IMG/VR virus record: IMGVR_UViG_2671181064_000003 | Source of the DNA: a virus | Lineage: Duplodnaviria; Heunggongvirae; Uroviricota; Caudoviricetes | Length of the DNA: 24,754 nucleotides | Direction: 5' to 3' (one strand) | Shown here: positions 1 through 24,497 of the stretch, piece by piece | Numbering within the stretch: the stretch's first letter is position 1 | How the letters are laid out: every line of letters begins with the position of its first letter | Notes under the pieces: generated by a model | The model's database searches: none | Seen by the model: only the letters and a program-made list of their open reading frames with translations | What the model was told of the DNA's origin: nothing | Translations under genes and position numbers: made by a program

Positions 1-83
1 AGGGACAGCTGATAGAAACAGAAGCCACTGGAGCACCTCAAAAACACCATCATACACTAAATCAGTAAGTTGGCAGCATCACC
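1..83 (-). mobile_element. IS1: IS1 terminal fragment (left inverted-repeat end), element continues off the window to the left
   Basis: Reverse complement of 1-83 reads GGTGATGCTGCCAACTTACTGATTTAGTGTATGATGGTGTTTTTGAGGTGCTCCAGTGGCTTCTGTTTCTATCAGCTGTCCCT, which I recognise as the IS1 left end including its terminal inverted repeat (61-83). GC content drops sharply from position 84. Confidence 0.85.
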
Positions 84-19180: not shown

Positions 19181-22861
<3,681 letters not shown>

Positions 22862-22887
<26 letters not shown>

Positions 22888-23407
22888 TCAGCAACCCCGG
22901 TATCAGTTCATCCAGCGCGGCTGCTTTGTTCATGGCTTTGATGATATCCCGTTTCAGGAAATCAACATGTCGGTTTTCCAGTTCCGGAAAACGCCGCTGC
23001 ACCGACAGGGGGATCCCGTCGAGAATACTGGCAATTTCACCTGCGATCCGCGACAGCACGAAAGTACAGAATGCGGTTTCCACCACTTCAGCGGAGTCTC
23101 TGGCATTTTTCAGCTCCTGTGCGTCGGCCTGCGCACGCGTAAGTCGATGGCGTTCGTACTCAATAGTCCCTGGCTGGAGATCTGTCTCGCTGGCCTGCCG
23201 CAGTTCTTCAACTTCCCGGCGCAGCTTTTCGTTCTCAATTTCAGCATCCCTTTCGGCATACCATCTTATAACGGCGGCAGAGTCATAAAGCACCTCATTA
23301 CCCTTGCCACCGCCTCGCAGAACGGGCATTCCCTGTTCCTGCCAGTTCTGAATGGTACGGATACTCGCACCGAAAATGTCAGCCAGCTGCTTTTTGTTGA
23401 CTTCCAT
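22862..23407 (-). CDS. Nu1: Terminase small subunit Nu1
   Basis: 181-aa ORF MEVNKKQLADIFGASIRTIQNWQEQGMPVLRGGGKGNEVLYDSAAVIRWYAERDAEIENEKLRREVEELRQ... matching lambda gpNu1. 3' end overlaps the A start. Confidence 0.95.
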
Positions 23408-23584
23408 TGTTCATTCCACGGACAAAAACAGAGAAAGGAAACGACAGAGGCCAAAAAGCCCGTTTTCAGCACCTGTCGTTTCCTTTCTTTTCAGGGGGTG
23501 TTTTAAATAAAAACATTAGGTTACGGCGAAGAAGAACGGAAACGCCTTAAACCGGAAAATTGTCATAAATAGCGAAAACCCGCG
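23408..23584 (-). promoter_or_regulatory. cosB region (terminase R-element and IHF-binding region) between cosN and Nu1
   Basis: Reverse complement is nearly identical to the lambda left end as I recall it (…CGCGGGTTTTCGCTATTTATGA…GGCGTTTCCGTTCTTCTTCG…GAAAGGAAACGACAGGTGCTG…CTGTCGTTTCCTTTCTCTG…), including the GTTTCC-type repeats. Confidence 0.7.
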
Positions 23585-23596
23585 CGCCTTCCGCCC
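23585..23596 (-). other. cosN (cohesive-end site), placed by homology; predicted 12-nt overhang GGGCGGAAGGCG versus lambda GGGCGGCGACCT
   Basis: Flanks align base-for-base with lambda (…CAGGTTACG | cohesive end | CGCGGGTTTTCGC…). Gene coordinates from Nu1 to I map to lambda coordinates with a constant offset that places lambda position 1 at window 23596. Confidence 0.65.
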
Positions 23597-23632
23597 CGTA
23601 ACCTGTCGGATCGCCGGAAAGGACCCGCAAAA

Positions 23633-23647
23633 TGATAATAATTATCA
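23633..23647. promoter_or_regulatory. Perfect 7-1-7 palindrome TGATAAT-A-ATTATCA, Fur-box-like candidate operator
   Basis: 15-bp perfect inverted repeat read directly from the sequence. It matches the 7-1-7 description of Fur sites (TGATAATnATTATCA). Lies ~150 bp upstream of the RHH-like ORF and ~40 bp from cosN. Confidence 0.35.
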
Positions 23648-23795
23648 TCTACATGTCACAACGTGCATCTACGCCATCAAACCACGTCAAATAATCAATT
23701 ATGACGCAGGTATCGTATTAATTGATCTGCATCAACTTAACGTAAAAACAACTTCAGACAATACAAATCAGCGACACTGAATACAGGGCAACCTC

Positions 23796-24029
23796 ATGTC
23801 AACGAAGAACAGAACCCGCAGAACAACAACCCGCAACATCCGCTTTCCTAACCAAATGATTGAACAAATTAACATCGCTCTTGTTCAAAAAGGGTCCGGG
23901 AATTTCTCAGCCTGGGTCATTGAAGCCTGCCGCCGGAGACTGTGCTCAGAAAAAAGAGTTTCGCCTGAAGCAAACAAAGAAAAGAGTGACATTACTGAAT
24001 TGCTCAGAAAACAGGTTAGACCAGATTGA
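23796..24029 (+). CDS. Small basic protein with a ribbon-helix-helix-like (Arc/MetJ/CopG-type) motif, unknown function
   Basis: 77-aa ORF MSTKNRTRRTTTRNIRFPNQMIEQINIALVQKGSGNFSAWVIEACRRRL... The segment RNIRFPNQMIEQINIALVQKGSGNFSAWVIEACRR fits the strand-helix-helix pattern. Weak ribosome-binding site. Confidence 0.55.
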   Translation: MSTKNRTRRTTTRNIRFPNQMIEQINIALVQKGSGNFSAWVIEACRRRLCSEKRVSPEANKEKSDITELLRKQVRPD

Positions 24030-24086
24030 AGCAATTTAGATAATCGTGCAGACTACGCCCCCTCATATCACATGGAAGGTACTACA

Positions 24087-24497
24087 ATGGCTCAGGTTGC
24101 CATTTTTAAACAAATATTCGATAAAGTGCGAAATAATTTAAACTATCACTGGTTTTATTCTGAACTAAAACGTCACAATGTCTCACATTACATTTACTAT
24201 TTAGCCACAGAGAATATTCATCTTGTTCTTGAAAACGATAATACGGTTTTAATAAAAGGACAGGGTAAGGTTGTAAATGTAAGATTTTCAAAAAATAAAT
24301 GCCTTATAGAAGCCACCTTAAAAGGATTCAAATCAGGAGAGTTATCATTTTACGAATACAGGAAAAATCTTGCTACAGCAGGGGTTTTCAGATGGATTAC
24401 AAATATCCACGAAAACAAAAGGTATTACTATACCTTTGATAATTCATTACTCTTTACTGAGAACATACAGAACACTACACAAATATTTCCGCACTAA
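24087..24497 (+). CDS. YbcV-like protein (DUF1398 family), unknown function
   Basis: ORF 24072..24497 contains [58 protein letters not shown]...[26 protein letters not shown], which resembles E. coli DLP12 YbcV as I recall it. Start placed at the internal ATG (24087) giving 136 aa. Confidence 0.65.

Follow-up and report, generated by a model that had tools for sequence, protein, structure and literature searches.

The palindrome TGATAATAATTATCA at positions 23633-23647 of the window, the 24,754-nucleotide stretch of prophage DNA that was analyzed here, is very probably a genuine Fur-binding site. It belongs to the cos/terminase module of lambda-type phages, and not to the DUF3950/DUF1398/bor genes on its other side. 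It is the orthologue of the long-known nohA and nohB/nohD Fur sites of Escherichia coli K-12, and as a Fur site it is already known. As to its function, there is in our judgment about an even chance that Fur, bound at this operator, holds back ordinary transcription into cos and the terminase/head operon in an iron-dependent manner.

The palindrome and its surroundings at cos

The 24.7-kb window is the structural half of a lambda-type prophage, with its orientation reversed relative to the lambda map. It is ~96% identical to Lambdavirus-like phages across ~90% of its length, and its terminase and structural gene set looks intact. The features around the palindrome are the following.

20962-22887, minus strand: terminase large subunit gene A
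22862-23407, minus strand: Nu1, the terminase small subunit gene (Pfam Phage_Nu1, E 2.4e-101), orthologue of K-12 nohA/nohD
23408-23584 (limits approximate), minus strand: cosB region, with terminase small-subunit and IHF sites, between cosN and the Nu1 start
23585-23596, minus strand: 12-nt cohesive end of cosN, GGGCGGAAGGCG
23620-23626, minus strand: cosQ, AGGACCC (GGGTCCT on the minus strand), identical to lambda 48473-48479
23628-23653, unstranded: probable extended Fur cluster, composed of the 19-mer 23628-23646 together with another half-site, displaced by +6 bp and ending in TCTACA (23648-23653)
23632-23659, minus strand, facing cos and Nu1: sigma-70-like promoter candidate, -35 GTGACA (23659-23654), 16-nt spacer, -10 TATCAT (23637-23632), 10/12 matches
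23633-23647, unstranded: probable core Fur operator, the perfect 7-1-7 palindrome, with orthologues at lambda 48452-48466 and at centers 580601 (DLP12) and 1636600 (Qin) of K-12 (NC_000913.3)
23796-24029, plus strand: DUF3950 (YlcI/YnfO family) gene, E 2e-20
24072-24497, plus strand: DUF1398 gene, E 3.3e-43, orthologue of ybcV/ydfO

Homology of the window to linear phage genomes stops at 23597, which is the cosN cut and the mature right DNA end. The palindrome lies 36-50 bp from this cut and 6 bp from cosQ, the packaging-termination signal, a conserved 7-bp site (PMC4669245) that is annotated in the phage 434 and phage 21 records. On the other side, its end is 148 bp from the DUF3950 ATG (23796), with no intervening gene. 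An earlier note on this DNA had placed the palindrome in an intergenic region of ~200 bp between cos and the small plus-strand genes; it does lie between them, but it adjoins cosQ and is not midway in free intergenic space. Nu1, the first gene downstream of the palindrome in the direction of the promoter-like element, has its ATG (23407) 233 bp from the palindrome center (23640). The cosB region contains R-type repeats and is ~96% identical to the regions upstream of K-12 nohA and nohD, and its subsites can be assigned provisionally from the published structure of lambda cos. A bor gene was not found within the window; in DLP12 and phage 434, bor comes after the DUF3950/DUF1398-type genes.

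Two further observations concern the sequences flanking the palindrome. The cohesive end GGGCGGAAGGCG differs from that of lambda, GGGCGGCGACCT, at five positions, all of them within bp 7-12 (minus strand). This variant is rare, being found in ~4 of 124 surveyed cos regions, and variation at bp 7-12 is common and tolerated according to the literature on lambda-type cos. At 23694-23726 there is an inverted repeat (ATCAATTATGACG / CGTATTAATTGAT) with 13-nt arms that are 85% complementary and have 7 nt between them. It falls in a stretch of ~107 bp (23681-23787) just upstream of the DUF3950 gene that is identical among the window, K-12 Qin, K-12 DLP12, and phage 434, and it could be an operator or promoter element of the DUF3950 gene.

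The perfect 7-1-7 inverted repeat described in the earlier note was found at exactly 23633-23647. It is the sole match in the window even when two mismatches are allowed, with a mean of 0.04 matches in dinucleotide-preserving shuffles. The palindrome matches all 14 of the specified bases of the 7-1-7 motif TGATAATnATTATCA, and the 19-mer 23628-23646 agrees with the classical Fur consensus GATAATGATAATCATTATC in 16 of its 19 bases. This is the top-scoring 19-mer of the whole window, and its score was reached by no shuffle. IHF site I2 was also considered as an identity for the palindrome, but I2 is situated across the cut, between cosN and cosB, which rules this out.

Fur binding at orthologous copies

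The intergenic region from Nu1 to the DUF3950 gene has two counterparts of ~96% identity in K-12, nohA-ynfO of the Qin prophage and nohD-ylcI of the DLP12 prophage. The distance from the palindrome center to the ATG is 233 bp in all three, measured to Nu1 in the window, to nohA (1636367), and to nohD (580834). The DLP12 copy is identical to the window in both the 15-mer and the 19-bp core. The 15-mers of Qin and lambda differ from it at the central base only, and the Qin copy also has a few differences in flanking bases. The region is present in 4713 of 5426 complete E. coli genomes (~87%).

Fur binding to these copies has been reported before. Upstream of nohA, the Qin copy was described as a pair of Fur sites that overlap, one of 22.3 bits at 1634624 and one of 12.6 bits at 1634630 in older coordinates (Chen et al. 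2007, PMC2189734). The nohA start is 1634391 in those coordinates, so the published site is again at +233. An oligonucleotide with the Qin site was gel-shifted by 150 nM purified Fur, and the DLP12 (nohB) site, at 25.3 bits, is third in the genome-wide table of strongest clusters (Chen et al. 2007, PMC2189734). As cited in the same paper, Vassinova and Kozyrev (2000) recovered the Qin fragment in vivo as Fur-binding DNA. Later papers name nohB among Fur-regulated genes.

Binding in cells was also reported for a more distant copy. In the nine-strain study of Gao et al. (2023, PMC10164565), Fur ChIP-exo of strain CFT073 gave peak P53 (1424699-1424711) in iron-replete cells only. The locus under P53 is a phage-21-type cos, and it carries a degenerate motif copy, CGAGAATAATTATCA, at 1424694-1424708, which is overlapped by the peak, adjoins cosQ, and lies ~230 bp upstream of the small terminase gene. 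In the MG1655 and W3110 Fur ChIP-exo tables of the same study, neither K-12 copy has a listed peak. Reads that map to both DLP12 and Qin might account for this, but that would be a partial excuse at most, because several bases within 50 bp distinguish the two copies.

The reading of the palindrome as a Fur box, which the earlier note had made from the letters alone, is supported by the consensus match and by these experiments on orthologous copies (gel shift and in vivo selection for Qin, ChIP-exo for CFT073). Our high confidence that Fur binds the palindrome rests on its being the orthologue of experimentally bound sites and on a conservation pattern, described below, that follows Fur recognition. 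We note that an FNR ChIP-seq summit at 1634625 (U00096.2), which was grouped with known Fur-bound sites (Myers et al. 2013), falls exactly on the Qin palindrome, at the position orthologous to 23640 of the window; nine other known Fur sites carry such a summit as well. The Qin palindrome sequence is not an FNR site (TTGAT-N4-ATCAA), and the summit may reflect co-occupancy, or the behavior of the antibody or of ChIP at Fur-bound DNA.

Co-inheritance of the motif with cosQ

In an unbiased survey, IMG/VR was searched by the cosN flank and cosQ only (CCGTAAC-N13-GGAAAGGACCC), and the sequence after cosQ was then inspected. The sample comprised 120 IMG/VR loci, with 124 cos regions that had enough flank. 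The motif was called when at least 11 of the 14 positions matched the 7-1-7 motif and the match started 3-8 bp after cosQ. By this measure, 95 of the 124 cos regions (77%) carry the motif, against a background of 0.4% in the same loci. The gap between cosQ and the motif among these 95 is 6 bp in 56, 5 bp in 19, 7 bp in 10, and 4 bp in 7, with a range of 3-8 bp. When the regions were sorted by the 50 bp that follow the motif on its right, 29 unrelated contexts emerged, 18 with the motif and 11 without it.

The motif is found next to cosQ in lambda, 434, 21, phi80, and N15, and it is kept there in phages where the DUF3950/DUF1398-type genes are swapped for unrelated genes. In phi80 and N15, the annotated neighbor gene runs towards cos and has its stop codon at or inside the motif, and there is no divergent gene at that place. 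Homology of the window to phi80, 21, N15, HK225, and Stx1 phages repeatedly ends at query position 107-114, which is no more than 6 bp from the palindrome's right edge. The motif is a part of the cos/terminase module, and not of the DUF3950/DUF1398/bor genes, since 18 of the 29 right-hand contexts, which are unrelated to one another, have it. Relatives carry iron-related accessory genes by cos: a TonB C-terminal-domain protein is encoded near cos in phage 21 (locus L003, 764-1090) and in the CFT073 prophage (locus L007, 455-781), and phi80 has a gene annotated as "putative Fur-regulated protein" near cos (locus L002, 961-1191).

Across 17 distinct motif-bearing contexts, the bases G2, A3, A5, T11, A12, T13, and C14 are invariant, and the spacer between cosQ and the motif is variable in sequence and length. 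The motif itself appears to be under selection, because its core is invariant while the adjoining spacer has diverged. The flank from +17 to +21, which was unused in picking the sequences, is conserved as TTrCA in the 17 unrelated contexts, with C at +20 in 14 of 17 (binomial P ~1e-5) and A at +21 in 13 of 17 (P ~1e-4). This flank fits a second Fur half-site shifted by 6 bp, as with the Qin sites 1634624 and 1634630 of Chen et al. 2007.

Although it is linked to cos, the palindrome falls short of a cos sub-site, being neither universal nor at a fixed spacing: 11 of the 29 contexts have an intact cosN flank and cosQ without the motif, and the distance to cosN and cosQ changes with the gap of 3-8 bp. 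The earlier note had offered a packaging signal near cosQ as an alternative. The linkage to cosQ agrees with that suggestion, but the absence of the motif from 11 of 29 cos contexts and its position outside the published 7-bp cosQ do not. In the largest class of cos regions without the motif, the same position is taken by a hairpin, GCCGGA and TCCGGC around GAAA, followed by seven T and facing cos (-13.6 kcal/mol). This element (GCCGGAGAAATCCGGC + T7; for example in loci L108, L106, and L017) is a rho-independent terminator against transcription heading into cos. The exchange suggests that the Fur motif and the terminator, at the same position, both limit transcription into cos.

Possible roles of Fur at cos and comparison with known systems

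The -10 hexamer TATCAT of the cos-facing promoter-like site lies within the palindrome. This is the sole promoter-like site on either strand of 23560-23800, and no sigma-70-like promoter facing the DUF3950 gene was found in that interval. A promoter-like site overlaps the motif in 4 of 16 contexts only, so it is not co-conserved with the motif, and none overlapping the motif was found in the CFT073 context, where derepression occurs. The promoter match may be incidental, because Fur boxes resemble -10 hexamers anyway, and we treat it as weak evidence.

Expression data were taken, like the ChIP-exo data, from the supplementary tables of one study (Gao et al. 2023). The RNA-seq measure is log2 (fur deletion / wild type) in iron-replete medium, and the positive controls entC and fepA stand at +6 to +10. 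In CFT073, the Fur pan-regulon table gives +1.34 for the large terminase gene and +2.13 for a downstream head-region gene. Two small genes across the peak from the terminase, C_RS07340 and C_RS26755, which have been dropped from the current CFT073 annotation, have values of +2.33 and +2.95. Two minus-strand ORFs start ~30 bp from the motif in this strain, and the motif could exert divergent control in the CFT073 context.

K-12, where the context is like that of the window, gives a different result. In the MG1655 fur deletion, nohD, nohA (under the name nohQ), ybcV, and ydfO show almost no expression and no change, and borD is at -1.2. In the W3110 fur deletion, with low counts, the values are -5.1 for ynfO, -2.0 for ydfO, -3.9 for ylcI, -3.7 for ybcV, -5.3 for ybcW, and -2.8 for nohD. 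We note that this 4- to 40-fold fall, which is seen in W3110 only, is the opposite of Fur repression. There is no derepression of nohA/nohD, ynfO/ylcI, ydfO/ybcV, or borD in the K-12 fur deletions, and the K-12 RNA-seq dataset contains no further transcription unit named nohA, nohD, ynfO, ylcI, ydfO, or ybcV.

We infer both the direction and the physiological purpose of Fur control at the palindrome. When iron is plentiful, Fe-Fur would most likely bind as overlapping dimers over ~23628-23653. The bound protein would dampen ordinary, non-antiterminated transcription that starts at or crosses the palindrome and would otherwise continue past cos into Nu1-A and the head genes; in the lambda-type context of the window, it would cover the -10 of the weak cos-facing promoter. 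Low iron or loss of Fur would lift this block. We consider such a brake to have about equal chances of being right and wrong. In its favor are the linkage of the motif to the cos module, the promoter-like element pointing at cos, the presence of a terminator in place of the motif in sister phages, the lack of a constant distance to cosQ, and the derepression in CFT073. Counting against it are the lack of nohA/nohD derepression in K-12 (unchanged in MG1655, lower in W3110), the lack of a K-12 ChIP-exo peak, and the unconserved promoter. The motif is in any case dispensable, because 11 of the 29 cos contexts do without it.

The site may instead bind Fur without significant function, as a strong decoy that is carried along with the cos module and has effects too small to matter. 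We regard this as rather improbable. It would account for the unchanged expression in K-12, for the absence of called ChIP-exo peaks at the K-12 copies, and for the many cos regions without the motif, and it would be in line with the many predicted or bound Fur sites for which no regulatory effect can be detected (as discussed by Chen et al. 2007, PMC2189734). However, a motif core that is invariant in 17 contexts despite a diverged cosQ spacer argues for selection on the motif. The conservation also tracks the layout of two overlapping Fur dimers beyond the bases used for picking the sequences, and in CFT073 there is iron-dependent occupancy together with derepressed flanking genes.

Fur could also be a host factor with an architectural part at cos, comparable to IHF at I1, aiding the termination of packaging or protecting or organizing the right end, which enters the cell first. 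This would make phage assembly or infection dependent on iron status. The tight linkage of the motif to cosQ in the five named phages and in most of the 124 cos regions, whatever the neighbors, is consistent with this, as is the fact that promoter elements are not conserved together with the motif. According to the literature, the cosQ-bearing right end is nuclease-exposed, unlike the terminase-bound left end, and the standard 238-bp cos fragment of packaging studies (lambda 48446-182) contains the palindrome. On the other hand, the gap to cosQ differs by as much as 5 bp among cos regions, a shift of roughly half a helical turn that is hard to square with protein-protein contacts of fixed geometry. 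An architectural role is likewise difficult to reconcile with the 11 motif-less contexts and with a published cosQ of 7 bp for which a requirement for flanking sequence is not mentioned (PMC4669245), and no paper in the searched literature links Fur and cosQ. Taken together, we think this role unlikely.

It is just as doubtful that the site is the operator of a rightward promoter, through which iron limitation would turn on the DUF3950 (RHH-like) gene, the DUF1398 gene, and possibly bor as a lysogenic-conversion unit. This had been the main proposal of the earlier note. The short, gene-free distance to the DUF3950 start speaks for it, and so do the 5- to 8-fold increase of the two small genes on the non-terminase side in the CFT073 fur deletion, where the nearby minus-strand ORFs would permit divergent control, and the iron-related genes beside cos in relatives (the TonB-domain protein of phage 21 and CFT073 and the "putative Fur-regulated protein" of phi80). 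In the published K-12 fur-deletion RNA-seq, no derepression was seen: the orthologues ynfO, ydfO, ylcI, and ybcV, together with ybcW, are unchanged (MG1655) or lower (W3110), and borD is ~2-fold lower, the opposite of derepression. There is also no promoter-like site towards the DUF3950/DUF1398 genes in 23560-23800. Moreover, the motif stays at cosQ where these genes and bor are absent, and the phi80 and N15 neighbors run towards cos and end at or within it. The proposal is not upheld by these data, and our analysis cautions against assuming that the site controls the bor-region genes.

Finally, although the region is rich in A and T and the palindrome is only 15 bp long, a chance palindrome without a specific binding protein, an alternative raised by the earlier note, can be practically discarded given an expectation of 0.04 per window, a motif frequency of 77% in independently chosen cos regions against 0.4% in the background, and the experimentally shown Fur binding at orthologues.

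The Fur site itself adds nothing new, as its K-12 counterpart came out of an in vivo screen published in 2000 and was gel-shifted in 2007. What may be unreported is that a Fur box conserved across lambda-type phages, lambda included, accompanies cosQ. In the searched literature, there was no paper with both cosQ and Fur, and nothing on cosQ together with a palindrome or on a Fur box together with terminase and prophage. We put forward only tentatively, as a rather improbable possibility, that a conserved and selected Fur operator at the boundary of the lambda-type cos/late-gene module (lambda, 434, 21, phi80, N15) is an unremarked iron input, which either insulates the terminase/head operon in lysogens or acts in packaging termination or right-end protection. 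Should the site function in lysogens, by keeping the terminase and head genes silent, or in packaging, host iron status would be tied to phage assembly, and the recurrence of nohA and nohB in Fur regulon lists would be explained.

Compared with known systems, the palindrome is closest to the Fur sites of nohA (Qin) and nohB/nohD (DLP12), with which it shares the ~96% identical intergenic region, the 233-bp spacing, and, for DLP12, an identical 15-mer. The K-12 copies are in decayed cryptic prophages, whereas the copy in the window is in a prophage with intact-looking terminase and structural genes, and the right half of cosN in the window differs from that of the Qin and DLP12 copies. With respect to cosQ, the palindrome is 6 bp away and co-inherited, and the 55-bp feature named "cosQ; aka R4 region" in the phi80 record spans it. 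However, cosQ proper is a 7-bp site that is essentially invariant and needed for packaging termination, while the palindrome is outside it, has a variable spacing, and is absent in 11 of 29 contexts. The palindrome resembles IHF site I1 in cosB in that both are recognition sites for host proteins conserved in or at the edge of the packaging region. I1, between the terminase binding sites R3 and R2, has a demonstrated DNA-bending role for terminase, whereas Fur is a metal-dependent repressor and not a constitutive bending protein. With the classical Fur-repressed promoters (fepA-fes, entC, fhuA), the palindrome shares the consensus, the layout of overlapping dimers, and an operator that contains a -10-like hexamer. 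Those promoters are derepressed 30- to 1000-fold in a fur deletion, but the genes by the cos site show no change in K-12 and a 2.5- to 8-fold increase in CFT073.
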